Shown here: piece by piece, positions 1 to 45,250 of the stretch
Layout of the letters: each line of letters starts with the position of its first letter
How positions within the stretch are numbered: position 1 is the first letter of the stretch
Assembly: GCA_020633995.1 (NCBI GenBank)
Contig: JACKCO010000003.1
Location: 73,503-137,502, forward strand
DNA: 64,000 nucleotides
Direction of reading: 5' to 3'
Source: Campylobacterota bacterium
GTDB taxonomy: Bacteria; Babelota; Babeliae; Babelales; RVW-14
Made by a program: the position numbers and the translations under genes
The notes under the pieces: model-generated
The model's input: only the letters and a program-made list of their open reading frames with translations
The model's database searches: none
What the model was told of the DNA's origin: nothing

Positions 1-2261
1 GCTCATTTGGCTTGGCCGCAGGTGGCAACACAGTCGTCTGCATTGATGGCAATGGTATTTATCGACGTACAGGCATAACAGCACAAAATCCTGGGGGTAC
101 AGGGTGGAGCAAAACCGCAGCAAATACATTGCGATACATCTCTGTTGGATCAAATGGTGATATCTGGGCATCAAACGTTGGTGGCATGGTCTACTATATT
201 GCAGCTGACACCCTGGATAATCCAAAGTTTGAACAGATTTCTAACCTTAAAAAGGGCAAAGTGCAAAGAGGCGTTGGTGCTCAGGTAGCAATGTACAAAT
301 TATCTGTTAGCGGACCTCAACTTACACCAAAACCTGGGCAAAGACCTATCACAATGGCAGCAGCGCAATCAAGACAACAAACGCCCGCCACTGCAGTAAG
401 CTTACAGCTGCCACCGAATCAAACAGCGGCAATACAGCTTCAAGGCCAAGATCAAACACCTGCACAGCAGCCTGACCCTGCCTCGAAACCGGCACAAACT
501 CCAACTGATGCTGATCAAGAACCAGCTCAAAAGCAAAGCCAAGATCAAACACCTGCACAGCAGCCTGACCCTACCTCGCAACCAGCACAAACTCCAACTG
601 ATGCTGATCAAGAACCAGCTCAAAAGCAAAGCCAAGACCAAACGCTTGCACAGCAGCCTGACCCTACCTCGCAACCAGCACAAACTCCAACTGATGCTGA
701 TCAAGAACCAGCTCAAAAGCAAAGCCAAGACCAAACGCTTGCACAGCAGTCTGACCCTGCCTCGCAACCAGCACAAACTCCAACTGATGCTGATCAAGAA
801 CCAGCTCAAAAGCAAAGCCAAGATCAAACGCTTGCACAGCAGTCTGACCCTGCCTCGCAACCAGCACAAACTCCAACTGATGCTGATCAAGAACCAGCTC
901 AAAAGCAAAGCCAAGATCAAACACCTGCACAGCAACCTGATCTTGCCTTGCAACCAGCACAAACTCCGGCATTGCCAATAGCCATATCAGCTCTTGATAA
1001 GGAAATTGAAAACGTCAAACAAGAAAAAGCTGATGTTGAACAGGAACTTAAAAATTTAGCCACAAAACATACTACCCTTGAAAAAAAACTCGTAGGACTA
1101 AATGCGCTCATTGCTCAACGCCGTGGCGAACTTAAAAAACTCAAAGCCGACATCACAGCTGCCGAAAAAAGATTAACTGAATTGACCGCAAAATATGAAG
1201 GTGATATTGCAGCAAAAGAGGCCGCTATTACCGAGTTACAAAGTGATGCAACAGCAACACAAGCTAAACTTGATAGTATAGCTGCACAAGCTGCACAACT
1301 AAGCAGACAAGAAGATTTATTGGCACTTGAGAAAAACCGACAAATACTTACGCAAAGACTGAACGCTATCGACTTTGCTAATGCTCAAGAGCTGGAAGCG
1401 GCTCGAACCGAATTAATGGCAAAGCTAAAAGAATTACAAGATATGAAACAAACTCAAGAGAATGCAGACGAACAACAACTCATAGCCATTAATGGCCAAC
1501 TGCAGTCCTTTGGCACGATGCTTGCCAATGTTGAGCAAGCAATCCAAACACTAGAGCAAAAACAAGATGCCTTAAAAACAGAAATAACCCCTACACAAAC
1601 AGCACAAACTGAAGCTACTCCCCAAGCAACAGAGGAAGCAACCACGCTTGTAGAAACCACACAACCAACAACCCTAACTCCCGCTCAATCAACAGCGACA
1701 GAAACAATCCCGGCAATAACTCATGCTGAAGAAAGTACAAAACAAGCAGCTCCTAACACCATGCCACAAACACAACCACAAACTGTAACTACCCAGGCTG
1801 TCGCTGCTGTTCAAGAAACCGCTACACAAAATACGACAACGACACCTGAAGCGTTTTCATTTACTGATGGAACAGGTCTTGAACTCGGCCAGGAATATGA
1901 TCCAACCGCCATTCCAACCCTTGCGGTCATGCCTGAACAATCAGATTTTATTATTGTCGAAGAATATGAAACTGATCCTGTTACCGGTCAAACCGTCGTA
2001 CGTAAACGTCTTGCCCGCAGACCTGAACGAGGCAGACAAGCGACAACAACGCCGACAGAAGCAGAACAAGTAATACCTCAGACTACCACAGGACGAGCTC
2101 GTACATCGCGTAGGCAAGCCCAACCTACCCAGGCAACAAGGGCTACACGGGGAAGACAGACAACACAACAAGCAACACGTCGTGAACCAACCCGACAACC
2201 ATCACGACGACAAACGCAGCAACCAACCCAACGACAACAAAGAAGTAGAACTAGATCTTAA
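1..2261 (+). CDS. 5-prime-truncated exported tectonin-repeat / coiled-coil protein with Arg-rich C-terminal tail
   Basis: The frame is open from the window edge, so the TTG at 12 is only an ORF-caller start. The first ~60 aa carry tectonin-type blades (GIYRRTGITAQNPGGTGWSK, NGDIWASNVGGMVYY). These are followed by 5.6 copies of a 31-aa tandem repeat, an A/E/K/L/Q heptad-rich segment (~aa 325-530) and a T/Q/P-rich spacer. The last ~85 aa are R/T/Q/S-rich (..TRGRQTTQQATRREPTRQPSRRQTQQPTQRQQRSRTRS). Confidence 0.85.
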   Translation, partial: SFGLAAGGNTVVCIDGNGIYRRTGITAQNPGGTGWSKTAANTLRYISVGSNGDIWASNVGGMVYYIAADTLDNPKFEQISNLKKGKVQRGVGAQVAMYKLSVSGPQLTPKPGQRPITMAAAQSRQQTPATAVSLQLPPNQTAAIQLQGQDQTPAQQPDPASKPAQTPTDADQEPAQKQSQDQTPAQQPDPTSQPAQTPTDADQEPAQKQSQDQTLAQQPDPTSQPAQTPTDADQEPAQKQSQDQTLAQQSDPASQPAQTPTDADQEPAQKQSQDQTLAQQSDPASQPAQTPTDADQEPAQKQSQDQTPAQQPDLALQPAQTPALPIAISALDKEIENVKQEKADVEQELKNLATKHTTLEKKLVGLNALIAQRRGELKKLKADITAAEKRLTELTAKYEGDIAAKEAAITELQSDATATQAKLDSIAAQAAQLSRQEDLLALEKNRQILTQRLNAIDFANAQELEAARTELMAKLKELQDMKQTQENADEQQLIAINGQLQSFGTMLANVEQAIQTLEQKQDALKTEITPTQTAQTEATPQATEEATTLVETTQPTTLTPAQSTATETIPAITHAEESTKQAAPNTMPQTQPQTVTTQAVAAVQETATQNTTTTPEAFSFTDGTGLELGQEYDPTAIPTLAVMPEQSDFIIVEEYETDPVTGQTVVRKRLARRPERGRQATTTPTEAEQVIPQTTTGRARTSRRQAQPTQATRATRGRQTTQQATRREPTRQPSRRQTQQPTQRQQRSRTRS
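447..968 (+). repeat. In-frame 93-bp tandem repeat, 5 full copies plus a partial one (31-aa unit QDQTPAQQPDPxSxPAQTPTDADQEPAQKQS)
   Basis: Direct reading gives units starting at 447, 540, 633, 726, 819 and 912, nearly identical at nucleotide level with a few substitutions (P/L, P/S, T/A). Stop-free ORFs in several other frames (402-962 -, 508-981 +, 664-978 -) are a side effect of the repeat. Confidence 0.95.
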
Positions 2262-2299
2262 AAGCGTAAAAAATAAAAACAGATAAAAGGGAGAAAGCA

Positions 2300-5200
2300 A
2301 TGCAAGCATTATTTCGTACCAAAAAATTCCAGGCCGTGCTCCTTGGCGCACTAGGTCTGCTTCTTTTGGGCACTGCCTACGTCAAAGGCGAAGCGCAGGT
2401 ACAACTGACCGCTGCAAGTGGTTCTGCCATAGATTTTTTGTATGATCGTTATGGCGCACGACTTGTTGTTAACGGACCCGTCAAGTACGGTGATGTTGTT
2501 CGCCTGGTCTCAGAAAACAAGAAAAGTAATACGGATGATCCATCGGTACCATTCGGCTCCAAAAAAATACGATACAATGGTCGAGACATCGCGCTTCACC
2601 ACACCGGACTCAAGTACGGACCATTTCAACCAATACCGTTGGGTCAGGTTTCTGGTAACATTGCCCAGGATATGAAAGATTTTTGGATTGTTAAGCCGCC
2701 ACACGGCAAGACGCTTGATGATGTTTCTCCCGAATCAAATAAACCATACAAGCAAACTGACGTAACCTCAGGAAGCACTATTCGTCTGACACATCTAACG
2801 ACACAAACAAACTTGCACTCAAATGCAGGTGTACAAGCACCAGATAGAGAGAACCAACAAGTTGCGACTTCCGGAAAAGATGGCATTGGCGATACTGGAG
2901 ACAACTGGGTACTTGAAATTGATGGTGGTAGTGTATGGGATAGAGCAACAAGCACCGTAAAACTCAAACATAAGAGAAGTGGTAATTACCTTTTCTTCCC
3001 AGGAACCACGTGGAACGCTGGTTACTACTCAACCCAAGACACCGGCTATCATTACATTACAGCTGCAGCTCCAGAAAGTGACATTACAAACAATTCTCAC
3101 ATCCTAAAATTTAAGATCGAAGAAGAAGATCTTGCTGGCCTCCCTGCAGAATTTAACTTGGTTGATGACGCCTCAACACCAGCCATTATCTATGGCCAAC
3201 CAATTCAAATTGCAAACTCGTATAGAAAAGAAAATGGTAAAGATATTTACCTACATAGAACGGGCATGAAATTTTCAACGTTTGATCGACGAGGTTCTTC
3301 GCCAGATGATGAACAGGTTACCGCTTCGTTTAAAGACGATGATAAAGACTTTTGGGTAATTTTACCAGCAAATGGCATGAGCCTTGACAGTACACATCCA
3401 AAGTCTGGCAAACCATATTCTCAAAGCCCTATTTATAATGACGACGTCGTTCGCATTCAACACCAGGGCAGCGGCAAATATCTCACATCACTGATTGGCA
3501 TTGAAGCACCCTTTCCCGCTGATCTTTATCAGATTATTACCACGACTGATCAAGATGACGATAAAAATAACTTTGTCATTGGCCTAACAGGCAAAACAGC
3601 CGATGATGTTTGGCGCACAGGGTTTAATGGCGTAAGCTTTAGGCACGCTCAAACCAACAATACACTTTTCTTTCCTGGTGACAAATTCAATATTTTCTTC
3701 TGGCCATGGATCAAAAATACCATACCACGCCAAACAACACTTATGCCTCACGAAGAACACTTCATTGTTGCAGGAATACGCACACCTGACCTTTCAAGAA
3801 TGATGGGTAATCCAGACCTTAAATCGATTGCACTAACCCACCTTTTCCAAGCAAAAATAGGAGAAGGCGACTTGAAGCGACTTGCAGAACTTGAGCTCAA
3901 ACGCAAAGCAGCAGAAATTCCACCGCTACAAGAATCTGTTATTGGTGTAAACGGCCACACATGGGCACTTACTGTCGATGATGCACCAGACTCACCAGGG
4001 AACAAACGTGTGTATCATAAACCTACTGACGAATGGATTGAGGTCACTGGTAGAGCTCTCAAACAAATAGCTGTAGGACCGAACGGTCAACTTTGGGGTG
4101 TCAATACTGACGACGACATCTATGCGCGCGAAGGTATTACACCTACAAGAACAATCGGCCAAAGTTGGACTAAGGTACCTGGAGCGCTTATCAACGTTAC
4201 CATCAAGGATGATGGCTCTGTAGAAGGTCTTAACAGGGATGACCTTTTCTGGGTCTCTGATTCTGGAGATTCAAAAAATCCAGAATGGCGTAACGATCCA
4301 TTTGGCTATCAACCGGATAGCTTTGTTCAAACAGTAACCGGACCTAACGGCCATGAATGGGGGCTAACCGCCAGACGTGAGGGTCCTAACTACCACGTCT
4401 ATGTTAAAAAAGATGATCGATGGATGCGTGTTAAAGATGGAGCTCTAGAGCAACTCGCAGTTGACGCAAATGGTAACATCTGGGGTAGAAACAACGAAAA
4501 CACTATCTTCTACCACGCTTTTGACATTCCAGACAGCGGACAACCAAACTGGATCAACGTAGCCGGCGCACAACTAACTCGTGTGGATATTGATAGTACA
4601 ACAGGTCAAGTTTCTGGACCTGGCGTTGATGGCGAACAATATATTTCTCAAACGGGCGATCCTAGAGATCCACAATGGATCACCGAAACGGAATTGAAAC
4701 GTCGTAAAGAAGACGCCGAACTTAAGAAGACAGAAGAGGCTGAACCTAAGACAGAAACAGAAGAGACTAAACCCAAGAAAGTAGAAGCTATCGAGAAGAA
4801 GGTGGAAGAAGTCGCACGTAAAGCCAGAGAAGCAATACTCAGCGAGGCAAAAACAGAACTTGGTACTCTTACAGCCAGCCGAGATGCTCGACAAGCAAGC
4901 GTAACAACACTTGAAGGTGATGTTAAGGCAAAAAGCTCAGAACTGAAATCCCTCGAGGCCGAAATCAAACGTGAGCAAGCACGCCTTGATGGCTTACTCA
5001 AAACAATCGAAGCTGAAGAAGACAAACTTGGTGGCGAGCTGGACAAACTCAACGAAGCACTTGCAGCAGAAAGAAAACGTCTAGGTGAACTTGAGGGCGA
5101 ACTTAAAGGTGAACAAGCAAAACTCAGCCAAGCTCAAGAGCGTACACAAAAACGAATTTCAGTAGAAAATCGAGAGTTAATTATCAATCGCCTCACAGAA

Positions 5201-6160
5201 CAAAAACTCTTAACACAAGAACAGTTTGCAACTTCACAACAAGCAATTCAAAACAAAATTGCAGAGCTAGACAAGATACAGAGCGATCAGGCAACAAGAG
5301 ACCGAACAGCACTCACTAATATCTTAAATCAACTACAGGCACTTACTCCTGCAATGGAAGGCATCCAAGAAAAAACTGAAGCCATAACTGGCAAGCAAAC
5401 GACCATAACAGAACACATGCAAGAGCTTGACAAGAAAAAGGTTGCAGCCGAGGAAGAAGCGGTTACACAGCAAGCTGAACAACCTACACCTTCAACCACG
5501 GAGCCAGCAGCACAACCAACGCCTCAAGCACCAATACAAACAAATGTCATATCAGAGCCAACAGCAACAGAAGCAACAACCCCTGACACACCGGTTCAAG
5601 CAGCTGTAGAACAAGAAGCTACAACCGAGCCAACAACAGAAGAAATAGCAGCACCCGCTGCTACAGTTCCCGCAGTCGCTGCAGCACGCACAAGACGTGG
5701 TAGAGTAACTCGCACCCCGGCCACGACAGAGACTGGCGCTGATACCACAAGCGAGCAACCGGCACAACCGACAGCAACAACACGTAGAGGGCGAACCTCA
5801 CGCAGTCCTGTTGCAGGGGCAACCAGAACACGTGCTGCCACAGCGCGCCGAGGCAGGCAAGCAGTCTCAACAGATGACCCAGCGCAAGCAGCAGTCGCTC
5901 AAAGTGATTCAGCAACCCCGACCCGCGGTAGAGCAACCCGTAGCAGAGCCACCCAAACGACCGGTACTGCTACAACACGTAGAACCCGAGCAACGGGCAG
6001 ACAAGCGGTAGCTCAACCAGCTGGCGCAGCAACAACTCGTCAAGCAGCCCGTAGCCGAGGCGGCGCTCGTAGACAAACAGCTGACCAACAACCAACCAGA
6101 AGACAAGCACGCACTCGTCAAGCCACAGAACAAACAACACGAAGAAGCAGAACCAGATAA
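2300..6160 (+). CDS. Exported MIR-like / tectonin-repeat / coiled-coil protein with long Arg-rich tail (1286 aa)
   Basis: The ATG follows an AAAGGGAGA RBS. The signal peptide is KKFQAVLLGALGLLLLGTAYVKG. There are two beta-trefoil MIR-like triplets (YGDVVRLVS / STIRLTHLTTQTNLHSN / VKLKHKRSGNYLFFPG and YGQPIQIAN / VVRIQHQGSGKYLTS / VSFRHAQTNNTLFFPG). Tectonin blades span ~3940-4680 (GQLWGVNTDDDIYAREGITP..GQSWTKVPG). A heptad coiled coil spans ~4680-5460, followed by a T/P/A/E spacer and a ~155-aa R/T/A tail from ~5686 with recurrent TRRGR/TRGRATR. Confidence 0.9.
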   Translation: MQALFRTKKFQAVLLGALGLLLLGTAYVKGEAQVQLTAASGSAIDFLYDRYGARLVVNGPVKYGDVVRLVSENKKSNTDDPSVPFGSKKIRYNGRDIALHHTGLKYGPFQPIPLGQVSGNIAQDMKDFWIVKPPHGKTLDDVSPESNKPYKQTDVTSGSTIRLTHLTTQTNLHSNAGVQAPDRENQQVATSGKDGIGDTGDNWVLEIDGGSVWDRATSTVKLKHKRSGNYLFFPGTTWNAGYYSTQDTGYHYITAAAPESDITNNSHILKFKIEEEDLAGLPAEFNLVDDASTPAIIYGQPIQIANSYRKENGKDIYLHRTGMKFSTFDRRGSSPDDEQVTASFKDDDKDFWVILPANGMSLDSTHPKSGKPYSQSPIYNDDVVRIQHQGSGKYLTSLIGIEAPFPADLYQIITTTDQDDDKNNFVIGLTGKTADDVWRTGFNGVSFRHAQTNNTLFFPGDKFNIFFWPWIKNTIPRQTTLMPHEEHFIVAGIRTPDLSRMMGNPDLKSIALTHLFQAKIGEGDLKRLAELELKRKAAEIPPLQESVIGVNGHTWALTVDDAPDSPGNKRVYHKPTDEWIEVTGRALKQIAVGPNGQLWGVNTDDDIYAREGITPTRTIGQSWTKVPGALINVTIKDDGSVEGLNRDDLFWVSDSGDSKNPEWRNDPFGYQPDSFVQTVTGPNGHEWGLTARREGPNYHVYVKKDDRWMRVKDGALEQLAVDANGNIWGRNNENTIFYHAFDIPDSGQPNWINVAGAQLTRVDIDSTTGQVSGPGVDGEQYISQTGDPRDPQWITETELKRRKEDAELKKTEEAEPKTETEETKPKKVEAIEKKVEEVARKAREAILSEAKTELGTLTASRDARQASVTTLEGDVKAKSSELKSLEAEIKREQARLDGLLKTIEAEEDKLGGELDKLNEALAAERKRLGELEGELKGEQAKLSQAQERTQKRISVENRELIINRLTEQKLLTQEQFATSQQAIQNKIAELDKIQSDQATRDRTALTNILNQLQALTPAMEGIQEKTEAITGKQTTITEHMQELDKKKVAAEEEAVTQQAEQPTPSTTEPAAQPTPQAPIQTNVISEPTATEATTPDTPVQAAVEQEATTEPTTEEIAAPAATVPAVAAARTRRGRVTRTPATTETGADTTSEQPAQPTATTRRGRTSRSPVAGATRTRAATARRGRQAVSTDDPAQAAVAQSDSATPTRGRATRSRATQTTGTATTRRTRATGRQAVAQPAGAATTRQAARSRGGARRQTADQQPTRRQARTRQATEQTTRRSRTR

Positions 6161-6179
6161 CATAAAGAAGTAAAAAAAA

Positions 6180-6206
6180 GGTGGGTAGAATTTAATTCTA
6201 CCCACC
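6180..6206 (+). terminator. Strong intergenic hairpin (11-bp perfect stem ggtgggtagaa / ttctacccacc), possible terminator or attenuator
   Basis: Stem 6180-6190 pairs with 6196-6206 around a 5-nt loop, 20 nt after the stop at 6160. It is flanked by A-runs rather than a downstream T-tract, so it is not a textbook intrinsic terminator. Confidence 0.45.
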
Positions 6207-6225
6207 TAAATAAAAAAGGGGAACC

Positions 6226-6987
6226 ATGTTGCACTTTATAGCGCCCTCCAAACAAGCTCCACGCTCTCTAAAGATCGGGCCTCTTATTCTCGTAATCTTT
6301 TCTCTGCTTGTACTGCAAACTTCAAAAGCGGCCATCGCTGACGATATTAGTGCGCTACAAAAGCAACTTACGCAACTAAAACAAGACTACGAGAGTGCAA
6401 TGATGTCTCTACAAGGCCTAGTTGACAATCGGGTTGCACAACAAATTCCAAATTTCACTCAGCCATTTGAAGCACAACTTGTACAACTTAACGCAGAGCT
6501 TGACGCTCTCATTCCTACCTTAGCAGAGCAAGTAACACCCGCTATCAAACAAAAAGTACAAGATATTATTAGCGATGAAATTAACACCCATATCCAAAAC
6601 AGTGTCGATCAGTCGGTAAATAGTGCATTTTTAAACGAATTCCAAGGAACTATTGATACCGAAGTGCTAGGACAAGTTAGGCAAATTGTGCAAGAACGCA
6701 TAGAGCCAATATTGCAGGACGTCCAAGCTATACAGGCAACACTTACACCTGAGTCAGCATCCACAGTTGATATCACAACTCCTCAGCGTGCACAGCAGGC
6801 TCGTGGTCGCGGTCGTGCTCCTCGTGCAACGCGCACGTCTGGACGCGTAAGAACGGCTCCACAAGGTCGTGAGGACAGAACGACGTCCCGCGCTAGAGCA
6901 CAAGTCCAACCTACACGCTCGACAACTCGCAGCACTGAACGACAAACAACATCTACAGACCGTACTCGTCGCAGTCGGGGATCTTAA
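6226..6987 (+). CDS. Small exported coiled-coil protein with Arg-rich tail ('headless' stalk-tail protein, 253 aa)
   Basis: The RBS is AAGGGGA. There is an N-terminal hydrophobic signal/anchor (LKIGPLILVIFSLLVLQTSKA). The Q/L/E-rich helical region is homologous to the C-terminal stalk of the 3805-aa protein (QDIISDEINT vs EQIISDELNT). The last ~65 aa are R/T/S-rich (RGRGRAPRATRTSGRVRT...RTRRSRGS). Confidence 0.85.
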   Translation: MLHFIAPSKQAPRSLKIGPLILVIFSLLVLQTSKAAIADDISALQKQLTQLKQDYESAMMSLQGLVDNRVAQQIPNFTQPFEAQLVQLNAELDALIPTLAEQVTPAIKQKVQDIISDEINTHIQNSVDQSVNSAFLNEFQGTIDTEVLGQVRQIVQERIEPILQDVQAIQATLTPESASTVDITTPQRAQQARGRGRAPRATRTSGRVRTAPQGREDRTTSRARAQVQPTRSTTRSTERQTTSTDRTRRSRGS

Positions 6988-7127
6988 ATATAGTGGAGGT
7001 AGTACAATTAAATTATTTCTTATTTGAAAATATTGACTTATAGGGAACTGTCTGTGATAAAGTGATATTAGAGCCTTTATAATTGATACAATATACGTAA
7101 AAAAACCGTATACTTAGGGGGAACAGA

Positions 7128-8201: not shown

Positions 8202-8285
8202 ATTTTTTTTAGATTAAAAAAGTTAAATAACTCATTTAAAAAAATAGATTTTAATTTAGTTACTACCTGAGGGGGGGAGTAAAAA

Positions 8286-20948: not shown

Positions 20949-20953
20949 AATAT

Positions 20954-20986
20954 AAAAAAGCCCCTGGTTTTGCCAGGGGCTTTTTT
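20954..20986. terminator. Bidirectional rho-independent terminator between convergent genes
   Basis: The sequence is aaaaaa-gcccctgg-ttttg-ccaggggc-tttttt. An 8-bp GC-rich stem is flanked by an A-run upstream and a T-run downstream. It lies between the stop at 20948 (+) and the stop at 20985 (-). Confidence 0.8.
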
Positions 20987-24520: not shown

Positions 24521-24613
24521 ACCTAAAGTAATATAAAAAACGCGCCCTACAGACGCCAAAACACCTAAGAACTCCCGCTCAGGGCACGAGTCACAATAAC
24601 TATGGAGGTTATT

Positions 24614-36993: not shown

Positions 36994-39900
36994 ATGAAAT
37001 ATTCACTCTATCATTCAATCAAACACTGGCTTGTGAACATACTTGCCTTAGGCCTTGTATGCTCGTCAGCACACGCAGGACATGGTTTTAAAGATGTTGC
37101 TGGCGCGTGGTACGGGCTTGATAAAGGTAACAAAATCAATGTTACCTCCAAAGCAAGCAACCAAGTAAAAAAAGAGGATTACCTGAAAGCCCCCGCAAAT
37201 ATGAACGAGTACTTTGGGCAAGACCCGATTCCAGGCACAGTTAAAACAGCAGCGTTCCATTTGATTTTTGACGATGGCTATGATCTGCATCTGCGCTGCC
37301 CTGAACATCATTACACAAACTTTTATGCTATTTATGCTCAACCATCACAAGACCCTAAACACCACGGCGGCAAACTGACCCCCGACAACAATCCTGATAT
37401 CAGACGTATCCCCCCAAATTTTCCAGCATTGCCAGCACCAGCTGAAATGGAACTTGGCAGAGTTTACACCAGTAGCGACAAGCAACACATCAACGACATT
37501 CACAATAATCATGTCATCCCAAAGCTCAAACAAATTCTTAAAGAATACGGCTTCATCTACATTCCTGATTGGAAAGCTTTCTTAGGTGAACAAAACTACC
37601 AAACATTTCAAGCCGAAGGTGAACACGCCGTCTACATCCATATCTTTATGAGAAACATCGAAAACAAATACGAAATTCTAGATTTCAAATTTGTTATGAG
37701 CATTGGAACCGACCAAGTTATTATCTACCCTACCACACCCGAAAACGCTGCAAAACACTTAGATGGCACAGAAAAGCAGCCAACCGAACCGGTTATGCCG
37801 GCAGTAGCAGCAACGCCGGTATCAGACTCGACCATTGCCTATGGTGACGTACTACGTATCAACTTTAGAGCTCTGGATCTTCGCCTACATGCGTGGAATC
37901 AACCATACAGACATCCAGGCACGTCAGGCCAGTTCCAAGTAAGCGCATGGGCTTATCAAGATGACAATGATCTGTTTAAAGTACTAGGCCCAGATGGTAC
38001 AGACGAAGACTACATGCTTGGCCAGCCAGTGAAAGCTGAGAGTACTATACGTCTTAAGCATATGGCAACCGGACACAACCTACACTCACACACACAACAC
38101 ATGAGCCCAGGCAACCATGGCTATGAAGTTACACTCTTTCAACACGGTAAAGATTCAAATGATAACTGGAATGTCTTAATCGATGGTAAAAGTGCAGGAC
38201 AAAACTGGGACAAAGCTGACAATTTCAGACTCTTTCACGTCAATACCAGCAGCTACCTCTACCTCCCAGGTCCTAAATTTGACGTACGCGAAGGTACTGG
38301 TCTTGGTGGCTCAGACTTGCAATACATCATTGCTGCAAAAGCTACAGCAGGAACACCCTCTATTGAAGTTGCACGAATTATCTCACAGTCTCCAATGTTT
38401 GTAAAAGATATTACTCAACGTGCATCAGCTCCGGAAAAACCTGAAACTACTGATACTAAGCAAGACACACCAACTACGGTGGTTAAGGGCCCAGAGGGAC
38501 ATGAGTGGGCACTTGGCTCTAAAAAAGTACCTGGTGGTTCAAATATCTTGTGTAAAAAAGATGACAAATGGATGGGGATTGATGGCGGACTAGTAAAACT
38601 AGCGGTCGGTAAAAAAGGCATCTTGTGGGGTGTTAATGAAAATGACGACATTTTCTACCGCGATGGCATCAGCGCAAGCAAACCAGAAGGCACCGCATGG
38701 ATACACGTACAAGGTAAATTAAAATCAATCTTTATCACACCATTTGGCACGGTCTACGGAAAAAATGCAGCAAATGAGTTTTTTGTTTCCTTCAGCGGTG
38801 ATCCTAAAAATCCAGCATGGGAAAAACAAGAGCAAGACGCAACCAAATTTACCTATGCCCCTGACATACAAGGTCTTGACGTCAAAACATATCATTCAAC
38901 ATGGAAGTTACCAGAAAAAGGTAAGGGCTCTGTAATATTCAAAGCACTTTGCTACAAAGACGTTCACGTCAACCTAGCACCAAACCAGGTTGATGAAAAA
39001 GGCAAAATGTATGAGCTTGTTATCGGTGGCTGGGAAAATACACAAACAGTTGTCTATGAACCAGAGGCTCGAGCACAAAACAAACAAGAGTTTATGTTTC
39101 AGAGCAAAGCCGTTGATGCACTCATTGAAAGCGGCCTAGGCAAAAGTGACAAGCCTGTCATGCATGAGTACTGGGTCAGCTATGACAATGGCAAGATTAC
39201 CGCAGGACGAGGCAGCACAATTGGCGAAAACACCTTCATAGATGTTAAAGATGACACACCGTTTGAAGACATTCAGTACATCGGACTGGGTGGCTGGAAC
39301 AACGTTGTTAAATTTCAAGACATCAAAATAGTTGGTGCTGCCCAAGAAAAAGAAGAAGCCAAAGAAGAAGTAAAAGAAGCTGTTAAAGCAGATCCTCTTG
39401 ATCAAACCTTCTTTAATTACACACGTAGCAACTTCTTTAAACAGCTGATTAAAAATACTCAGCAAAAACATACCATTAACTATGGCGACATCATCGAACT
39501 TAACCACGTGTATGGTAACGTTCAAATTCACGCTAACAACGCCTTCAAATACAACAATGAAGGTGGCTCAGGACAAGTTCAAGTTCAAGGCTGGTCGGTT
39601 CCTGGCGACGAAAGCAACTTCTTCATCGTCAAAGGCCCAGACGGCCAAGATGATAAAGAAGGTCCCGTCAAGAGCGGCGACACAATTCGCCTTGAACACA
39701 AAGTATCTAAGATGAACCTTCACTCACATGCTTCTCACCAAAGCCCTAACGATTTTGGAGCCGAAGTTACCTTGTTTGGCAGTGACAGTAAGGGTGATAG
39801 CAATGACAACTGGGTTGTTATGGTCATGGATGATGATCAATTTGGTAACCCATCAAAAATTGGCACAGAGTGGACGACGCGTGATAGCGTTAACTTCTTC

Positions 39901-40446
39901 CACCACAACACCAGCACAGACAAAAACGCAAGCAATGTCTCGAATAAGAGCTTCTTGACCTGGGGTGGACAAAAACAAATGTTTGACGTCTGGAAAACTA
40001 ACGATAAGGACAGCACAAAGTCACACTTACAGTACGAACTTGCTGGCACTGATCGTGAAAGTCATTGGTTTGTAAGCGCATTCCACAAAGACAGCCCAGA
40101 AAAGAAAACAATGACCACTGCAGCAGTTCCACCGAAAAAAGTAACCCAAGATGAAAAGAAAGAAGCTGACAAAGAGCGTAAGGGAGACGAAAAAGTCGAC
40201 CCACGTCGCGTTGTGCGTCGCAGCAGAACACGACGTCGTAGAGGCGAGGTGGCTGAGGTTGACGACCAAGCTCGTTCAGCTCGTAGCAGACAAGTACGTG
40301 ACCGCGGTACAAGATCTCGTGGTAGACGTCGTGAACGTGGTGCTCGCGGAACAAGCAGACGTGAAAGCCGCTCAGTTCGTGGTAGACGTGGACAACGCAG
40401 CAGAGAAACGTCAGCACGTGATCGTCGCGGCAGATTAAGAGATTAA
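36994..40446 (+). CDS. Exported DUF3395-like x2 / MIR / tectonin / FAMeT-N-like / SDF2-like MIR protein with basic tail (1150 aa)
   Basis: The RBS context is CTTAGGGGGAG. The signal peptide is LVNILALGLVCSSAHA. The N-terminal module is AGAWYGLDKGNKINVTSK...YFGQDPIPGTVKTAAFHL, followed by a second, degenerate copy. The remainder is colinear with the 33290 protein (MIR, 3 tectonin blades, one beta-sandwich, SDF2-like MIR). The tail is RRSRTRRRRGE...RSRGRRRERGARGTSRRESRSVRGRRGQRSRETSARDRRGRLRD. Confidence 0.9.
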   Translation: MKYSLYHSIKHWLVNILALGLVCSSAHAGHGFKDVAGAWYGLDKGNKINVTSKASNQVKKEDYLKAPANMNEYFGQDPIPGTVKTAAFHLIFDDGYDLHLRCPEHHYTNFYAIYAQPSQDPKHHGGKLTPDNNPDIRRIPPNFPALPAPAEMELGRVYTSSDKQHINDIHNNHVIPKLKQILKEYGFIYIPDWKAFLGEQNYQTFQAEGEHAVYIHIFMRNIENKYEILDFKFVMSIGTDQVIIYPTTPENAAKHLDGTEKQPTEPVMPAVAATPVSDSTIAYGDVLRINFRALDLRLHAWNQPYRHPGTSGQFQVSAWAYQDDNDLFKVLGPDGTDEDYMLGQPVKAESTIRLKHMATGHNLHSHTQHMSPGNHGYEVTLFQHGKDSNDNWNVLIDGKSAGQNWDKADNFRLFHVNTSSYLYLPGPKFDVREGTGLGGSDLQYIIAAKATAGTPSIEVARIISQSPMFVKDITQRASAPEKPETTDTKQDTPTTVVKGPEGHEWALGSKKVPGGSNILCKKDDKWMGIDGGLVKLAVGKKGILWGVNENDDIFYRDGISASKPEGTAWIHVQGKLKSIFITPFGTVYGKNAANEFFVSFSGDPKNPAWEKQEQDATKFTYAPDIQGLDVKTYHSTWKLPEKGKGSVIFKALCYKDVHVNLAPNQVDEKGKMYELVIGGWENTQTVVYEPEARAQNKQEFMFQSKAVDALIESGLGKSDKPVMHEYWVSYDNGKITAGRGSTIGENTFIDVKDDTPFEDIQYIGLGGWNNVVKFQDIKIVGAAQEKEEAKEEVKEAVKADPLDQTFFNYTRSNFFKQLIKNTQQKHTINYGDIIELNHVYGNVQIHANNAFKYNNEGGSGQVQVQGWSVPGDESNFFIVKGPDGQDDKEGPVKSGDTIRLEHKVSKMNLHSHASHQSPNDFGAEVTLFGSDSKGDSNDNWVVMVMDDDQFGNPSKIGTEWTTRDSVNFFHHNTSTDKNASNVSNKSFLTWGGQKQMFDVWKTNDKDSTKSHLQYELAGTDRESHWFVSAFHKDSPEKKTMTTAAVPPKKVTQDEKKEADKERKGDEKVDPRRVVRRSRTRRRRGEVAEVDDQARSARSRQVRDRGTRSRGRRRERGARGTSRRESRSVRGRRGQRSRETSARDRRGRLRD

Positions 40447-40491
40447 GTAAAAGGTTATTAAAAAAACAAAAGTAAACAGGAGAGAGCAATC

Positions 40492-42294
40492 ATGAAAAAT
40501 GCATTAACATTTTCGCATAGATCTGTACGGCTGCTGCTTGCATTACTTGCAATTATTGGTTTTGCACAAGCTAACGCGGCAACGGTCAAGTTTGGCGATA
40601 CCATTCGCCTGACAGCTGATGTGAATGGCCAGGATTTTCAGCTCCATTCATGGGGAAAAAATTTTTCTCATGAAAAGACTTCCGGGCAACAACAGGTGAG
40701 CGCATGGAAAGCGCAAGATGATAACGACTGGTTTATCGTGATGCCAGAACACGGCCGCTCAGACGATTATAAAAAAGGTGAAGCAGTCAAAGCTGGTGAT
40801 ACACTCAGACTCAGACACAAGGAAACAGGCAAAGAACTTCACTCTCATGACATAAACGTCTATGGGCACCCTGCTCCAAACAACGAAGGACAAGAAGTAA
40901 CCTGCTACGACCCAGACGATGCAAATGATAATTGGGTTCTTGTCATTCGTGGCAAATCTGACGGAGAATGGGAAACCGATGACAGTGTCAACTTCAAACA
41001 CAAGGCAACTAAAAAAAGCGTCTTTTTAAACATTCCAGGCTCAACATTTGACGTCCGCAAAGGAACCGATGCACCAGGACAAGATTTTCAAAATGTTGTC
41101 AGTGCAAAAGAAGAAGACACCCCTTCTCAATGGTTTTACGTCAAAGACATTCAAGAAGTAGCCTCAGCTGAGCAAAAAGAGAACAAGAAAGAAGAAGCAA
41201 AAGAAGAGTCCAAAAAAGAAGATAAAGAGGACGATGACCAACTCGACATGGAGTTTTTTGCTCTGACCAAAAATGTAATGGCAAAGCAACGTCTTAAAAA
41301 TACGCAACAAAAACACACCATCAACTATGGTGACATCATCGAACTTAACCACGTCTATGGTAACGTTCAAATCCACGCCAACAACGCATTTAAGTACAAC
41401 AACGAAGGCGGTTCTGGCCAGGTACAAGTCCAGGGCTGGACAGCTCCAGGCCAAGAAGAAAACTTCTTCATCGTCAAAGGCGCAGATGGTCAAGATGATA
41501 AAGAAGGTCCCGTCAAGAGCGGTGACATTATCCGCCTTGAACACAAAGTTTCTAAAATGAATCTCCACTCACATGCTTCACACCAAAGCCCTAATGGCTT
41601 CGGTTATGAAATTACGCTGTTTGGCAGCAACGGAAAAGGTGACAGTAATGACAACTGGGTTCTGATGGTAATGGACGATGACCAGTTTGGTAATCCTGCC
41701 AAATCAGACACCGAATGGACAACACGTGACAGTGTCAACCTTTATCACCACAACTCGAGTGACAATAAATCTGTGGGTAATGTTTCAGGCAAGCGATTCT
41801 TGACCTGGGGTGGACCAAAACAAATGTTTGATGTTTGGACTACCAACGACAAAAATAGCCCAAAACGCCATGACCAATTTGAGCTTGCTGGTACAGAGCA
41901 TGAAAGTCATTGGTTTGTAAGCGCATTCCACAAAGACACCCCCAAAGAAAAAGAAATGGCTATCGCAACCGAGCCACCTAAAACAGTAACTGCAGACAAA
42001 GAAGATGTGAAAAAACAAGAAGAAGGTGACAAAGACAAAGATAAAGAAGACGAAGAAGAGGAAGTAGTCGCTGACGCACGAAGCGTAAGAACTCGCAGAA
42101 CACGAACGGCTCGTACACGCGGTACAAGAGGTACAACTCGTCGGTCAAGAACATCACGTCCAGAACGCGGAGCACGAGGAACTCGAACCACAAGAACAAG
42201 AGCTACACGCAGCACACGAACAAGCCGTGGCCGTGAACGTGCAGGACGTAGAACAACTCGTACTTCACGCCGCAGTGCGCGTTACGAAGGATAA
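40492..42294 (+). CDS. Exported double-MIR (SDF2-like) protein with basic tail (600 aa)
   Basis: The RBS is AGGAGAGAG. The signal peptide is LLLALLAIIGFAQANA. MIR 1 contains VKFGDTIRLTADVNGQDFQLHSW, DTLRLRHKETGKELHSHD and VNFKHKATKKSVF. A K/E/D linker follows. MIR 2 contains INYGDIIELNHVYGNVQIHAN, IIRLEHKVSKMNLHSHASHQSPN and GKGDSNDNWVLMV. The tail is RTRRTRTARTRGTRGTTRRSRTSRPERGARGTRTTRTRATRSTRTSRGRERAGRRTTRTSRRSARYEG. Confidence 0.9.
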   Translation: MKNALTFSHRSVRLLLALLAIIGFAQANAATVKFGDTIRLTADVNGQDFQLHSWGKNFSHEKTSGQQQVSAWKAQDDNDWFIVMPEHGRSDDYKKGEAVKAGDTLRLRHKETGKELHSHDINVYGHPAPNNEGQEVTCYDPDDANDNWVLVIRGKSDGEWETDDSVNFKHKATKKSVFLNIPGSTFDVRKGTDAPGQDFQNVVSAKEEDTPSQWFYVKDIQEVASAEQKENKKEEAKEESKKEDKEDDDQLDMEFFALTKNVMAKQRLKNTQQKHTINYGDIIELNHVYGNVQIHANNAFKYNNEGGSGQVQVQGWTAPGQEENFFIVKGADGQDDKEGPVKSGDIIRLEHKVSKMNLHSHASHQSPNGFGYEITLFGSNGKGDSNDNWVLMVMDDDQFGNPAKSDTEWTTRDSVNLYHHNSSDNKSVGNVSGKRFLTWGGPKQMFDVWTTNDKNSPKRHDQFELAGTEHESHWFVSAFHKDTPKEKEMAIATEPPKTVTADKEDVKKQEEGDKDKDKEDEEEEVVADARSVRTRRTRTARTRGTRGTTRRSRTSRPERGARGTRTTRTRATRSTRTSRGRERAGRRTTRTSRRSARYEG

Positions 42295-42300
42295 ATAAAG

Positions 42301-42319
42301 AGGGGAGCAATGCTCCCCT
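42301..42319 (+). terminator. Short perfect hairpin (aggggagc-aat-gctcccct) between array genes; weak terminator/attenuator candidate
   Basis: An 8-bp stem lies 7 nt after the stop at 42294, with no T-tract. The next gene starts at 42350. Confidence 0.35.
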
Positions 42320-42349
42320 TCTATAACAAAAAACCAGGGGGATTTGATA

Positions 42350-44158
42350 ATGAACGGTTCACTTTTTAAACGCTATTTAGCGAGCACGCTTATCCTGATG
42401 GGACTTGCATGTTCATCAGTAAACGCAGCTAACTTTAAAGTAGTTCACGCGTGGTATGGCTTTGATGGCAATGAAACCATCGACGTCACAACAAAACTTG
42501 CTGAGCAGCTCAACAAAGATGGCTACTTAAGCTTTCCTGCGGATATGAACAAATATTATGGCAAGGACCCGATTCCAAACAAAGTAAAAGTAACCGCCTA
42601 TCATCTCCAGACTGAAGCTGGTCACAATTTTCACTTCAGAACCCCTGAATGGGCAGATTCTCACCTTGCAAACATTGTTTCAAATGTTTCTGGCAAATCG
42701 CTCAATCGAGAAAAAGATCCTAAAGATAGAAAACTTCCTTCAGGCTTTCCAGACATTATGCCTCCTGCAGAAATGGAAGCTGTACATGCATGGTACGGGA
42801 ATGAAACCAATGTCGTTATCGACAAAATAAAAGAAAATATAAAAGAATTTGGCTTCATTTACATGCCTGACATTAAAAAGGCATTCAATGACACCGACTC
42901 AAGTAGTAAAAAACTTGCCATCCACTTACGACTAAGAAATCACGACGATGTTGGGCAAATACTCGACGTACATCTACGAGCAGACAGTGATAAACCATTC
43001 ATTTTCTATCCGATCAATCCTGCTGAAACAACTATGGCCAAAGAAGAGAAAAAAGACGAACCTAAAAAAGACGTCGAAGAAAAAGTTGTAGAAAAAGCAA
43101 CAGAAGATACACAAGCGCTTGACATGGACTATTTCGCGCTAACACACAGCGTTGCATCAAAACAATTGCTAAAAAATACGCAACAAAAACACACCATCAA
43201 CTATGGTGACATCATCGAACTTAACCACGTCTATGGTAACGTTCAAATCCACGCCAACAATGCATTTAAGTACAACAACGAAGGCGGTTCTGGCCAGGTA
43301 CAGGTCCAGGGCTGGACAGCTCCAGGCCAAGAAGAAAACTTCTTCATCGTCAAGGGCGCAGATGGCCAAGATGATAAAGAAGGTCCCGTCAAGAGCGGTG
43401 ACATTATTCGCCTTGAACACAAAATTTCTAAAATGAATCTCCACTCACATGCCTCGCACCAAAGCCCTAACGACATTGGTTATGAAATAACTTTGTTTGG
43501 CAGCGATGGCAAAGGTGACAGCAATGACAACTGGGTTCTGATGGTAATGGATGATGACCAAATCGGTAATCCTGCAAAGTCAGATACCGAGTGGACAACT
43601 CGCGACAGTATCAATTTTTACCACCACAACACCAGTGACAACAAAGCGGTCAGCACTGTTTCTGGCAAACGCTTTTTAACCTGGGGCGGACCAAATCAAA
43701 TGTTTGATGTTTGGACCACCAACGAAAAAACTAGTCCAAAACGCCACGATCAATTTGAACTTGCGCTCACCGGACATGAAAGTCATTGGTTTGTAAGCGC
43801 ATTCCACAAAGACACCCCTAAAGAAAAGAAGATGGCAATTGCAACAACACCACCGAAAAAGGTCACCGCTGACAAAGAAGATGTTAAAAAACAGGAAGAA
43901 GGCGACAAAGATAAAGATAAAGAAGACGAAGAAGAAGACACAACCGATGTACAAAGCGTAAGAACTCGCAGAACACGAACGGCTCGTACACGACGTACAA
44001 GAGGCACAACACGCCAAGCAAGAGCACCACGCACAGAACGCAGCACAAGAGGCGCAAGAACAAGAACCACACGCAGCACACGAGCAAGCCGTGGTCGTGA
44101 ACGTGCGGGACGTAGAACAACTCGTACTTCACGCCGCAGCGCACGTTATGAAAAATAA
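42350..44158 (+). CDS. Exported DUF3395-like x2 / SDF2-like MIR protein with basic tail (602 aa)
   Basis: The ATG at 42350 follows GGGGGA (the caller's TTG is at 42344). The signal peptide is LASTLILMGLACSSVNA. The N-terminal modules are FKVVHAWYGFDGNETIDVTTKL..YYGKDPIPNKVKVTAYHL and AVHAWYGNETNVVIDKIKE. The C-terminal half is nearly identical at nucleotide level to that of the 40492 gene. Confidence 0.9.
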   Translation: MNGSLFKRYLASTLILMGLACSSVNAANFKVVHAWYGFDGNETIDVTTKLAEQLNKDGYLSFPADMNKYYGKDPIPNKVKVTAYHLQTEAGHNFHFRTPEWADSHLANIVSNVSGKSLNREKDPKDRKLPSGFPDIMPPAEMEAVHAWYGNETNVVIDKIKENIKEFGFIYMPDIKKAFNDTDSSSKKLAIHLRLRNHDDVGQILDVHLRADSDKPFIFYPINPAETTMAKEEKKDEPKKDVEEKVVEKATEDTQALDMDYFALTHSVASKQLLKNTQQKHTINYGDIIELNHVYGNVQIHANNAFKYNNEGGSGQVQVQGWTAPGQEENFFIVKGADGQDDKEGPVKSGDIIRLEHKISKMNLHSHASHQSPNDIGYEITLFGSDGKGDSNDNWVLMVMDDDQIGNPAKSDTEWTTRDSINFYHHNTSDNKAVSTVSGKRFLTWGGPNQMFDVWTTNEKTSPKRHDQFELALTGHESHWFVSAFHKDTPKEKKMAIATTPPKKVTADKEDVKKQEEGDKDKDKEDEEEDTTDVQSVRTRRTRTARTRRTRGTTRQARAPRTERSTRGARTRTTRSTRASRGRERAGRRTTRTSRRSARYEK

Positions 44159-44179
44159 TAAATAAAAAAGGGGAACGTT

Positions 44180-45250
44180 ATGAACTACTCTCGCTTAACA
44201 AAAAGCATTGTCCATCTGCTCAGCATGCTGCTGTGCCTGTCAACAGCTGCGCACGCTGCCCTGACGCAGCCGGCAATGCCAGTTATCGCAAGCTATAACA
44301 AGCAAACTCATCCACAGCAAACCATCAAATATGGCGATGTAATCAATATCCGTCATGCCTACTGCAAGGTGCAACTTGATGGAAGTAGCAAAAAAACATT
44401 TGATTCTGGCAACCGTGAAGTGTTTGGACTGGACGGCAGCGACAACATGCACTCATTTGTTGTGCATGGCCCACACGGCAGTGCCGCTGACTATCAAAAA
44501 GGTGAGCCAGTCAAGCATGGCCACATTATTCGCCTTGAGCCGTACGATTCTAACGCGTTCTTAACCGCCAATCTTAATGTAAGCAGCCCAGACGAGTTTG
44601 GTCCAGAAGTTTCATGCGCAGCAGGTAGCAGCAAGGCGTGTGACTGGATGGTGTTGATGAGCAAAGACGGTATGGCACACACACCAGCAGCTGCAGGCAG
44701 CGCACTGACAACACACGATAATTTTTCACTCTACCACGTAGCAAGCAGCAAAAATGAAGACTCTAAAACCACCTCTGGAAAAATGTTTTTGACTTGGGTT
44801 CCAAACACCGTCTACCAAACAGGTGATGGAAGCATGGGGCACGTCATCTCAATGGGTGATCAAGAAAGCCATTGGTTTGTAAAATCACTCTACGGCCAAG
44901 ATGAAACACCAGACGTTGATGAGCCAGAGGGCCAACAAGTAAGCGTTGCAAAACCAGTTATTTCAGGCGAAGGGCCAGCGATCAGAATAATTGCTGAAGA
45001 AAAAGATCGCGATGCTACACAACCACTTGTTCGTCGTGAACGTCGCCGTCCTGGCAGAACACGAACCATCGAACGTAAATATGGCCGCAAAGGAACTGGC
45101 AGAACACGAGGAGCGCGCTCTGGCGCAGGCATGAGCAGCCGCCGTGACCGTCGAGCAGAACGTGCTACACGTACAAGCACAGCACGCAAAGACAGACGAA
45201 CCGAGCAGCGAGCAAAATATCAAGATTATCTTGAAAGCAAAGGTCGTTAA
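44180..45250 (+). CDS. Exported single MIR-like protein with basic tail (356 aa)
   Basis: The RBS is AAGGGGA. The signal peptide is IVHLLSMLLCLSTAAHA. The diverged MIR module contains IKYGDVINIRHAYCKVQLDG, GHIIRLEPYDSNAFLTANLNVSSP, FSLYHVASSKNEDSKTTSGKMFLTW and ESHWFVKSLY. The tail is RRERRRPGRTRTIERKYGRKGTGRTRGARS...RRDRRAERATRTSTARKDRRTEQR. Confidence 0.88.
   Translation: MNYSRLTKSIVHLLSMLLCLSTAAHAALTQPAMPVIASYNKQTHPQQTIKYGDVINIRHAYCKVQLDGSSKKTFDSGNREVFGLDGSDNMHSFVVHGPHGSAADYQKGEPVKHGHIIRLEPYDSNAFLTANLNVSSPDEFGPEVSCAAGSSKACDWMVLMSKDGMAHTPAAAGSALTTHDNFSLYHVASSKNEDSKTTSGKMFLTWVPNTVYQTGDGSMGHVISMGDQESHWFVKSLYGQDETPDVDEPEGQQVSVAKPVISGEGPAIRIIAEEKDRDATQPLVRRERRRPGRTRTIERKYGRKGTGRTRGARSGAGMSSRRDRRAERATRTSTARKDRRTEQRAKYQDYLESKGR

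Follow-up and report, generated by a model that had tools for sequence, protein, structure and literature searches.

Predicted exported proteins with lectin-type heads and polycationic C-terminal tails in two gene arrays of a Babeliales bacterium

Electrostatic C-terminal attachment modules have precedents among bacterial proteins that contact a host. In InlB and the other GW proteins of Listeria, an N-terminal host-binding head is followed by a basic C-terminal module that is held non-covalently on an anionic polymer of the envelope, and the attachment of GW modules is displaced by heparin. Retention of InlB depends on teichoic acid (PMC6779246). The mycobacterial HBHA, a surface adhesin of an intracellular pathogen, contains a coiled coil and then Lys/Ala/Pro-rich polycationic C-terminal repeats that bind heparan sulfate (PMC3293801, PMC6176652). 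PE_PGRS3 of M. tuberculosis is a modular exported protein, whose protruding Arg-rich C-terminus binds phosphoinositides and cardiolipin and promotes host-cell entry (PMC8007152). In the present study, we analyzed a stretch of 64,000 nucleotides (hereafter the window; GenBank assembly GCA_020633995.1, contig JACKCO010000003.1, positions 73,503 to 137,502 of the forward strand), in which two gene arrays encode twelve proteins (g01 to g12) that end in polycationic tails and mostly carry lectin-type heads; g13 is a related gene without the tail.

HBHA has neither a Sec signal peptide nor a lectin head, is a single small protein of a monoderm-like mycobacterial envelope, and has no sequence homology to the window proteins, whose tails are Arg-based; an HBHA-like composition is seen in the K/A/P/T/V tails of some relatives (proteins P0226 and P0156, and proteins of the related contig L008). 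PE_PGRS3 differs in its PE/ESX export, in an Arg-rich domain that was modelled as helical, in having no lectin domains and in being encoded by a single gene, and GW modules are folded SH3-like repeats of a Gram-positive envelope, attached to a leucine-rich-repeat head. As for the heads, the propeller units of the window are clear sequence relatives of the Tectonin lectins (Laccaria Tectonin 2, fish-egg lectin and tachylectins), but those are small single-propeller eukaryotic defence lectins, whereas here up to about 27 units occur in one protein, fused to MIR and FAMeT-N-like domains, stalks and tails. The MIR domains of SDF2 and PMT proteins are the best solved relatives of the trefoils, which match Pfam MIR; however, they belong to the eukaryotic endoplasmic reticulum lumen, whereas the window has tandem copies in bacterial exported proteins. 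The head-stalk-anchor logic resembles that of trimeric autotransporters and fibrous adhesins, with coiled coils in about half of the members, but the window proteins have no YadA-type barrel or other known anchor. The domain families are known. In the literature searched, the combination of a Sec leader, multi-lectin heads, a stalk and a polycationic intrinsically disordered region (IDR) appears to be undescribed, as do the array expansion, the exchange of Arg and Lys across Babeliales-like contigs and the presence of the tail on non-lectin heads; no report of such tails in Dependentiae came up there.

A first-pass annotation, made from the nucleotide sequence alone, had proposed twelve plus-strand genes with a common layout of lectin-like head, coiled-coil stalk and polycationic tail. 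Listing and translation of the open reading frames (ORFs) confirmed all twelve at their coordinates. They form two co-directional arrays on either side of ftsH-tolBARQ: g01 (1-2261, with its ORF at 3/12-2261), g02 (2300-6160), g03 (6226-6987), g04 (7128-8201), g05 (8286-19703) and g06 (19797-20948) in the first, and g07 (30925-33246), g08 (33290-36937), g09 (36994-40446), g10 (40492-42294), g11 (42350-44158) and g12 (44180-45250) in the second. The 5' end of g01 is cut by the window start, and statistics on N-termini therefore cover 11 genes.

In all twelve proteins, the C-terminal 28-190 residues are hydrophilic, rich in Arg and almost free of Lys, with a net charge of +4 to +29, so that the Arg-rich disordered tail first ascribed to every member was borne out. 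The tails total 986 residues, of which 28% are R, 15% T, 14% A, 8% G, 8% Q and 2% K. Outside the tails, Arg makes up 1.5-9% and is exceeded by Lys, and the Arg enrichment is therefore local rather than a genome-wide bias; on the same ground, that Lys exceeds Arg elsewhere in the same proteins, we rejected GC content alone as the cause of the choice of Arg over Lys. None of the 15 other ORFs of the window, five of them with signal peptides, has such a tail (Fisher p=6e-8). Since the Arg codon usage of the tails equals that of the gene bodies, the tails are genuine coding sequence; this and the conservation of the tail between g10 and g11 rule out an assembly or frame artefact. Compared with shuffled sequences, the tails have too few adjacent RR pairs (z -5.6) and a surplus of RxxR (z +6.1) and RxR. 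This even spacing of the basic residues fits a uniform polyelectrolyte. An acidic patch often lies directly upstream of the tail.

The earlier statement that no known anchor or sorting module is present also held. Pfam searches with all 12 proteins found no beta-barrel, LPXTG, PEP-CTERM, type IX secretion system C-terminal domain (T9SS CTD), RTX or autotransporter module, and NCBIfam searches with the C-terminal 200-380 residues of ten members (g01 to g10, the last of which is nearly identical to g11) gave no match to a sorting signal. In particular, neither Pfam nor NCBIfam matched a YadA-like C-terminal beta-barrel, and the C-termini are hydrophilic and Arg-rich. No hydrophobic segment precedes the tails, and signals of the LPXTG, PEP-CTERM, GlyGly-CTERM or T9SS CTD type were not found there.

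At the other end of the proteins, a heuristic check agreed with the Sec-type signal peptide previously assigned to every gene whose 5' end lies in the window: all 11 complete N-termini have an n-h-c leader with two to three basic residues, a 12-residue hydrophobic core (mean Kyte-Doolittle value 2.15-3.16) and a small-x-small (AxA-type) site. A regular-expression search found no lipobox in any of the 11 leaders, and lipoprotein anchoring was rejected for this reason. The products of g02 to g12 are thus predicted to be exported by Sec and processed by signal peptidase I.

Lectin-type head units could be placed in ten of the twelve genes, using hidden Markov models (HMMs) trained on the window's own sequences beside the Pfam profiles for Tectonin/TECPR propellers (PF19193, PF06462), MIR (PF02815) and Methyltransf_FA (PF12248). 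The earlier proposal that all members have such heads therefore stands for these ten, by Pfam, our own HMMs, PDB sequence matches and a fold search, and fails for g03 and g04, in which no head was found. In most of g01, g02 and g05-g10, Tectonin/Hyd_WA, MIR or Methyltransf_FA scored at or over the curated Pfam cut-offs. The Tectonin scores (cut-off 30 bits) were 88.8 in g02, 747.9 in g05, 63.7 in g08, 54.7 in g09 and 41.8 in g13, and g01 reached a cut-off by Hyd_WA alone (26.4 bits vs 21). MIR (cut-off 25.6) scored 46.9 in g07, 33.5 in g08, 43.8 in g09, 31.2 in g10 and 25.9 in g05, and remained under the cut-off in g02 (24.9) and g11 (17.5), while g12 gave only a weak Ins145_P3_rec match; the window-trained HMMs placed MIR units in g02, g05 and g07-g12, including g11 and g12. 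Methyltransf_FA (cut-off 24.2) scored 117 in g05, 30.8 in g06, 205.4 in g08, 58.8 in g09 and 84.3 in g13. The C-terminal MIR copies carry a lineage-specific 'HWFV' third lobe.

Among PDB sequences, the trefoil is closest to 3MAL, an SDF2-like protein of Arabidopsis (E=1.5e-16), with PMT MIR domains next, and the propeller is closest to Laccaria Tectonin 2 (5FSB, E=1.4e-19), with fish-egg lectin 4RUQ at 1.9e-13. An AlphaFold2 model of the FAMeT-N-like domain (pLDDT 89.1, pTM 0.85, from an alignment of 10 sequences) was compared with the PDB by Foldseek, and all of the top 50 matches were galectin carbohydrate-recognition domains (E about 4e-4 to 2e-3, TM score 0.5-0.6), at a sequence identity of only 6-17%; the domain thus models as a galectin-like beta-sandwich. 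Because of these sequence relatives and the galectin-first model, the Tectonin, MIR and FAMeT-N heads are all assigned, by homology and modelling, to lectin-type folds, a likeness that is no proof of sugar binding. Tectonin, MIR and galectin-like folds are known as mainly eukaryotic families. The N-terminal domain that is duplicated in g09 and g11 has no Pfam family at E<=1, and DUF3395, to which it had been compared, did not match even at this threshold.

The coiled-coil stalk of the first description applies to about half of the genes. Heptad-like windows exceed the shuffle level only in g01, g02, g03, g04, the C-terminus of g05, and g07, where they sit between two trefoils. The other six have linkers instead, short and K/E-rich in g08-g12 and Pro-rich in g06.

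The source organism can be placed by gene content. FtsH (22268-24208) is 66-74% identical to full-length Babeliales/Dependentiae/TM6 proteins, and the only named lineages among its top 120 matches were Candidatus Babeliales, Candidatus Dependentiae and candidate division TM6. The gene order tolQRAB-ftsH-(L28)-S20-glyoxalase is common to the window and the Babeliales contigs L002, L004 and L006 (L002-L011 are our labels for related contigs, and P0002, P0156 and P0226 for related proteins). From these FtsH relatives and the common gene order, the organism is assigned to Dependentiae (TM6), order Babeliales. The NCBI label of the genome, Epsilonproteobacteria/Campylobacterota bacterium (locus tags H6679_, of which H6679_00375-00385 are identical to proteins of the window), appears to be wrong by the same two markers. 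The presence of tolB-tolA-tolR-tolQ indicates a diderm. Cultured Dependentiae are intracellular parasites of protists such as amoebae and flagellates and pass a very large part of their proteome through Sec (PMC6561590), and the source organism is probably an intracellular parasite of a protist as well; the earlier guess of a protist host agrees with the FtsH placement (70-74% to Babeliales/Dependentiae/TM6) and with the parasitic life of the cultured members (PMC6561590). Babeliales are reported to lack most genes for the synthesis of lipopolysaccharide (LPS) (PMC4776705, PMC6561590), and the compared TM6 genomes have components of the type II secretion system (T2SS), with two gspD copies (PMC4776705).

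The layout recurs in related genomes. An exhaustive HMMER search with g09, from which the signal peptide and the tail had been removed, matched 1847 representatives at E<=1e-3, and among the best 147 of these, 12-17 have polycationic C-termini, nearly all of them in signal-peptide proteins whose heads are Tectonin, FAMeT-N or MIR. L006 (GC 38%) has a syntenic array, which is divergent from tolQ and encodes a signal-peptide protein with FAMeT-N, one with Tectonin and FAMeT-N, and a headless T/A-rich protein, all of which end in Lys-rich tails. On L007 and L008 (GC 37-39%), two to three adjacent signal-peptide Tectonin/FAMeT-N proteins end in poly-Lys stretches, 20-100 residues long, that in some cases lead into poly-Glu. 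Seven proteins of L010, some headless and some not, have a signal peptide, a C-terminal helical module in common and a basic end. P0002 consists of a signal peptide, two MIR domains, a coiled coil and a Lys-rich segment. L011 belongs to Babeliales by its enolase cluster. The expected co-occurrence of heads and basic tails in related genomes was thus found, as arrays on L006, L007, L008 and L010. Since the tails of the relatives are Lys-rich, conservation covers the layout and the positive charge, but neither the sequence nor the choice of Arg. The charge blocks themselves follow a pattern, with an acidic patch before the tail in the window and poly-K followed by poly-E in the L007 relatives.

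The set also extends beyond the twelve genes first named. On other contigs of the same metagenome-assembled genome (MAG), H6679_05170 has an R/T/Q tail and H6679_06015 a K/R tail, while g13 and two paralogues carry the same heads and no tail. Furthermore, two adjacent minus-strand genes on L006 (17510-18937 and 18981-20183) encode ubiquitin-specific protease (USP)-type deubiquitinases (Pfam UCH over the cut-off), whose head has eukaryotic ubiquitin as its substrate. In both, the N-terminus resembles a signal peptide, and a charged coiled coil and a long C-terminal tail rich in K/R complete the layout. Because the tail is also found on these enzymes, it appears to be a generic module of exported host-interaction proteins and not a device specific to lectins. 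Other searches added little: when g10 and g08 were used in word-indexed searches for homologues, low-complexity words filled the candidate list and almost all matches were proteins of the same MAG; profile scans of genome contigs with the MIR trefoil and Tectonin alignments confirmed no relative; a metagenome scan yielded only a eukaryotic PMT; and a scan of viral contigs gave no match.

We tentatively interpret the tailed proteins as electrostatically retained multi-lectin surface or host-contact proteins, a reading to which we give somewhat less than an even chance. The tail would act by its charge and not by its sequence, holding the exported protein on a polyanionic surface, for which the cationic C-termini of HBHA (PMC3293801) and PE_PGRS3 (PMC8007152), both binding host polyanions, are precedents. 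LPS had been suggested as the anionic anchor, but this is doubtful, as most LPS synthesis genes are reportedly missing from Babeliales (PMC4776705, PMC6561590), and we rejected LPS anchoring as the default on this ground (PMC4776705). The surface would most likely be the LPS-less envelope of the parasite, with anionic phospholipid or peptidoglycan as the partner, and the multivalent heads would then face outward and bind host glycoconjugates during uptake or in the vacuole. The proteins could also be oriented the other way round, their tails attached to anionic host lipids or glycans. The headless helical proteins g03 and g04 may co-assemble through the common helical modules and so add further tails. 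Passage across the outer membrane, the surface location, the binding partners of tails and heads, and an adhesin function are what we infer from this layout.

Several observations weigh against this interpretation. The heads are mostly eukaryotic folds and could mimic host proteins instead of binding glycans; similarity in fold does not prove that sugars are bound. The same head families occur tailless in g13, H6679_05125 and H6679_02270, and tails occur on the L006 deubiquitinases, whose substrate sits in the host cytosol. The reported loss of LPS takes away the most obvious anionic anchor (PMC4776705, PMC6561590), and no route across the outer membrane was identified in the window, where the T2SS/secretin genes described for TM6 genomes (PMC4776705) were not seen.

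The main alternative is that the proteins are secreted effectors, which reach the host cytosol or vacuole after Sec/T2SS export or release in vesicles and act inside the host cell; we regard this as possible but rather unlikely. The tails would then be directed to phosphoinositide-rich membranes, the nucleolus or nuclear speckles, RNA or tubulin tails, and the TECPR-like, SDF2/IP3R-like MIR and galectin-like heads would mimic or intercept host factors such as sensors of membrane damage or xenophagy. The deubiquitinases with the same layout, the eukaryote-like heads (the top non-self matches include eukaryotic TECPR and PMT proteins) and g13, in which ankyrin repeats are joined to heads of these families, keep this explanation alive. 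In Chromulinavorax, 44% of coding sequences and 78% of ankyrin proteins have signal peptides, and these ankyrin proteins are regarded as effectors (PMC6561590). The mixed-charge R/S/E/D tails of g08, g09 and g12 also resemble eukaryotic nuclear and nucleolar IDRs, and Lys-rich IDRs are described as nucleolar and phosphoinositide-binding signals in a preprint (bioRxiv 10.1101/2025.01.29.635480). However, three glycan-binding folds, with up to about 27 propeller units per protein, are better suited to extracellular binding by avidity, the evenly spaced Arg with depleted RR is unlike the clustered motifs of classical nuclear localization signals, and tails of 100-190 residues and poly-K runs of 60-100 residues far exceed the length of targeting signals. 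In addition, there is no known system for translocation into the host in Dependentiae.

A second alternative is that the tail is a lineage-specific sorting signal coded by composition, which directs proteins across or onto the outer membrane by a secretin/T2SS-like route or loads them into vesicles, and which might be removed afterwards, in the manner of a T9SS CTD or LPXTG signal. This would agree with its place at the extreme C-terminus in every case, its occurrence on mutually unrelated lectin-type proteins, headless helical proteins and deubiquitinases, the absence of known sorting domains and its conservation as a property over several Babeliales-like contigs; the frequent upstream acidic patch could mask it in transit. 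Nevertheless, we consider a sorting signal improbable. Its length (28-190 residues) and composition (R here, K elsewhere, sometimes with poly-E) vary beyond any known sorting signal, many exported proteins of the same loci, including g13, the ankyrin proteins and TolB, have no tail, and no candidate recognition machinery was identified. Slightly less probable still is a structural coat or matrix of the infectious particle, in which charge blocks and coiled coils self-assemble or coacervate with extracellular DNA or polyphosphate and lectin domains cross-link glycans inside a fibrous layer, since the proteins have no homology to known coat or S-layer families and the strong divergence of heads between paralogues suggests diversifying host recognition and not a conserved lattice, although headless g03 and g04 and the 259- and 414-aa proteins of L010 share C-terminal helical modules with head-bearing neighbours, acidic and basic blocks adjoin, and the array organization suggests co-expression.

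A further reading is that the polycationic tail, Arg here and Lys in relatives of lower GC content, is an unrecognized composition-encoded tag for surface retention or sorting in the LPS-less Babeliales. We consider this further reading unlikely. If it is true, unrelated exported modules (multi-lectins, deubiquitinases and coiled-coil scaffolds) would be displayed on the parasite surface or on host membranes, and the tail would do the work of LPXTG or CTD signals by charge alone. Such a general display or targeting tag would explain how an LPS-less diderm places effectors at its interface with the host without type III, IV, V or IX secretion signals, and would be a handle for predicting effector repertoires. 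Dependentiae are widespread, almost uncultured parasites of protists, and to our knowledge nothing is known about their attachment, entry or manipulation of the host. The locus and its counterparts are a candidate set of host-contact proteins, and suggest a simple physical rule by which the phylum could be searched, namely a Sec leader combined with an interaction head, a spacer and a polycationic tail. The heads also show large-scale bacterial reuse of three otherwise mainly eukaryotic lectin folds.

Within the first array, g01 has one or more Tectonin blades (Hyd_WA E=5.8e-6), a PQ-repeat, heptad regions at residues 326-400 and 483-529, and an Arg/Gln/Thr tail (nt 2094-2258; 29% R, net +15). 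The repeat (nt 441-967) consists of 5.7 tandem copies of 93 bp, 96% identical, and encodes a 31-aa Pro/Gln/Asp/Thr-rich spacer unit that separates the Tectonin head from the coiled coil; variation in copy number is probable and would change the length of the stalk. The 1286-aa product of g02 comprises a signal peptide, two MIR domains, a Tectonin propeller (E=4.4e-25), a heptad region of about 220 residues, a T/P/A/E-rich linker and an Arg-rich tail (nt 5687-6157, net +27). Headless g03 (253 aa) has a signal peptide, a helical module and an Arg/Thr tail (nt 6787-6984), and matched no Pfam family; its helical module is 30% identical over 80 residues to the C-terminal module of g05 (BLASTP), and a single-sequence AlphaFold2 model of low confidence shows helices at 18-128 and 135-173 and an unstructured tail. 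The other headless protein, g04 (357 aa), has a signal peptide, a helical/heptad part of about 100 residues (heptads at 80-133), for which Pfam gives just a sub-threshold BLOC1_2 coiled-coil match, and a 190-aa R/A/T/G-rich tail with TRGRATR-like repeats (nt 7620-8198, net +29). In g05 (3805 aa), a signal peptide is combined with about 27 Tectonin units in four blocks, three FAMeT-N-like domains and one MIR domain (Tectonin E=1e-226, Hyd_WA 1.3e-157, Methyltransf_FA 7e-34; PDB matches 5FSB and 4RUQ), followed by the helical module and a basic tail (nt 19473-19700) whose net charge of +4 is the weakest of the twelve. The array ends with g06 (383 aa), in which a signal peptide is followed by a single FAMeT-N-like sandwich (Methyltransf_FA E=2.8e-7) between two Pro-rich linkers and an Arg/Pro tail (nt 20853-20945).

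The members of the second array all begin with a signal peptide. In g07 (773 aa), a K/E-rich heptad segment of about 240 residues separates two MIR domains (Pfam MIR E=3.8e-12), before an acidic patch and an Arg/Lys tail (nt 33052-33243, net +23). The order in g08 (1215 aa) is two FAMeT-N domains, MIR, Tectonin, FAMeT-N, MIR, a K/E linker and an Arg/Ser tail with 49% R (nt 36794-36934), with Pfam values of 3.6e-61 for Methyltransf_FA, 2.2e-17 for Tectonin and 4.9e-8 for MIR. Two copies of the N-terminal domain without family assignment, about 100 residues each, open g09 (1150 aa), and MIR, Tectonin, FAMeT-N, MIR, a K/E linker and an 89-aa Arg-rich mixed-charge tail with 39% R (nt 40177-40443) follow. 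The product of g10 (600 aa) has a MIR domain, a K/E linker, a second MIR domain (Pfam MIR/Ins145_P3_rec; PDB 3MAL, 1.5e-16), an acidic patch (DKDKDKEDEEEE) and an Arg/Thr tail (nt 42079-42291, net +25). In g11 (602 aa), two N-terminal domains as in g09 precede a K/E linker, a MIR domain, an acidic patch and an Arg/Thr tail (nt 43961-44155, net +24); its C-terminal half is 93% identical to g10 in the MIR trefoil alignment and is a recent duplicate of it. The last gene, g12 (356 aa), encodes one MIR-type trefoil, placed by our own HMM, an acidic patch and an Arg-rich mixed-charge tail (nt 45032-45247). Outside the arrays, the signal-peptide protein g13 (54855-63890, plus strand, 3011 aa) joins Tectonin and several FAMeT-N units to ankyrin repeats (Ank_2 E=2.8e-46, Methyltransf_FA 8.6e-24, Tectonin 1.1e-10), and its C-terminus is not basic.

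Intergenic spacers within the arrays are 21-140 nt, and a GGAG/GGGGG motif lies 5-12 nt upstream of every start, in agreement with the strong G-rich ribosome-binding sites noted before. Terminators had been placed at 20954 and 45272 and taken to delimit two long transcription units. The two strongest sites with a hairpin and a T-run are indeed at these places: a bidirectional terminator at 20952-20988, with a 16-bp stem (7 GC pairs) and A/T runs on each side, ends array 1 as well as the convergent glyoxalase-like gene, and an intrinsic plus-strand terminator at 45272-45297, with a 10-bp stem (7 GC pairs) followed by TTTTATTT, closes array 2. The two operon-like units g01-g06 and g07-g12 are only plausible, because additional intergenic palindromes occur at 6179-6207 (g02/g03) and 42301-42319 (g10/g11), both without a plus-strand T-run, and a promoter-like site with a 10/12 match lies at 7054-7083 ahead of g04. 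Between the arrays are the glyoxalase-like gene, ftsH, a gene for a signal-peptide ankyrin protein and tolB-tolA-tolR-tolQ, and g07 is divergent from tolQ. Rfam and tRNA scans of the window gave no matches.

The ankyrin protein between ftsH and tolB (24602-26191) has, besides its signal peptide and repeats, a weak F-box match (E=0.012) and a hydrophobic C-terminus; a 103-aa ORF at 26415-26726 repeats its leader (MNKKILLLIAILSTHSVFG) and also has a hydrophobic end. In other Babeliales, on contigs L004 (1-6489 and 16985-21869) and L002 (111-3764), arrays of WD40 beta-propeller or unassigned proteins take the place of lectin-type genes beside tolQ...ftsH. The site looks like a variable island that houses repeat-domain proteins. 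L007 encodes at 10136-10549 a 137-aa K/A/V/R-repeat protein with no signal peptide and no Pfam match, which looks like a histone-H1-like nucleoid protein and is reminiscent of the chlamydial Hc proteins.

Downstream of array 2 (45257-45400), the terminator at 45272-45297 falls inside the longest ORF of the following AAA_14/DUF4143 ATPase gene, the true start of which is probably the Met near 45392 (MFKRDLEK...). Two paralogous signal-peptide proteins of 568 and 1138 aa are encoded on the minus strand at 46756-48462 and 50069-53485; they have near-identical N-termini, weak ankyrin matches and no basic tail. Overlapping minus-strand gene pairs at 48753-49494 and 53824-54515 each encode a minimal nucleotidyltransferase (Polbeta/NTP_transf_2) and a HEPN or nucleotidyltransferase-substrate-binding protein, and look like HEPN-MNT toxin-antitoxin modules by their domain content. 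Between genes at 49567-49835, there is a tandem repeat of 133 bp in two copies, with a 94% match and GC-rich inverted segments.

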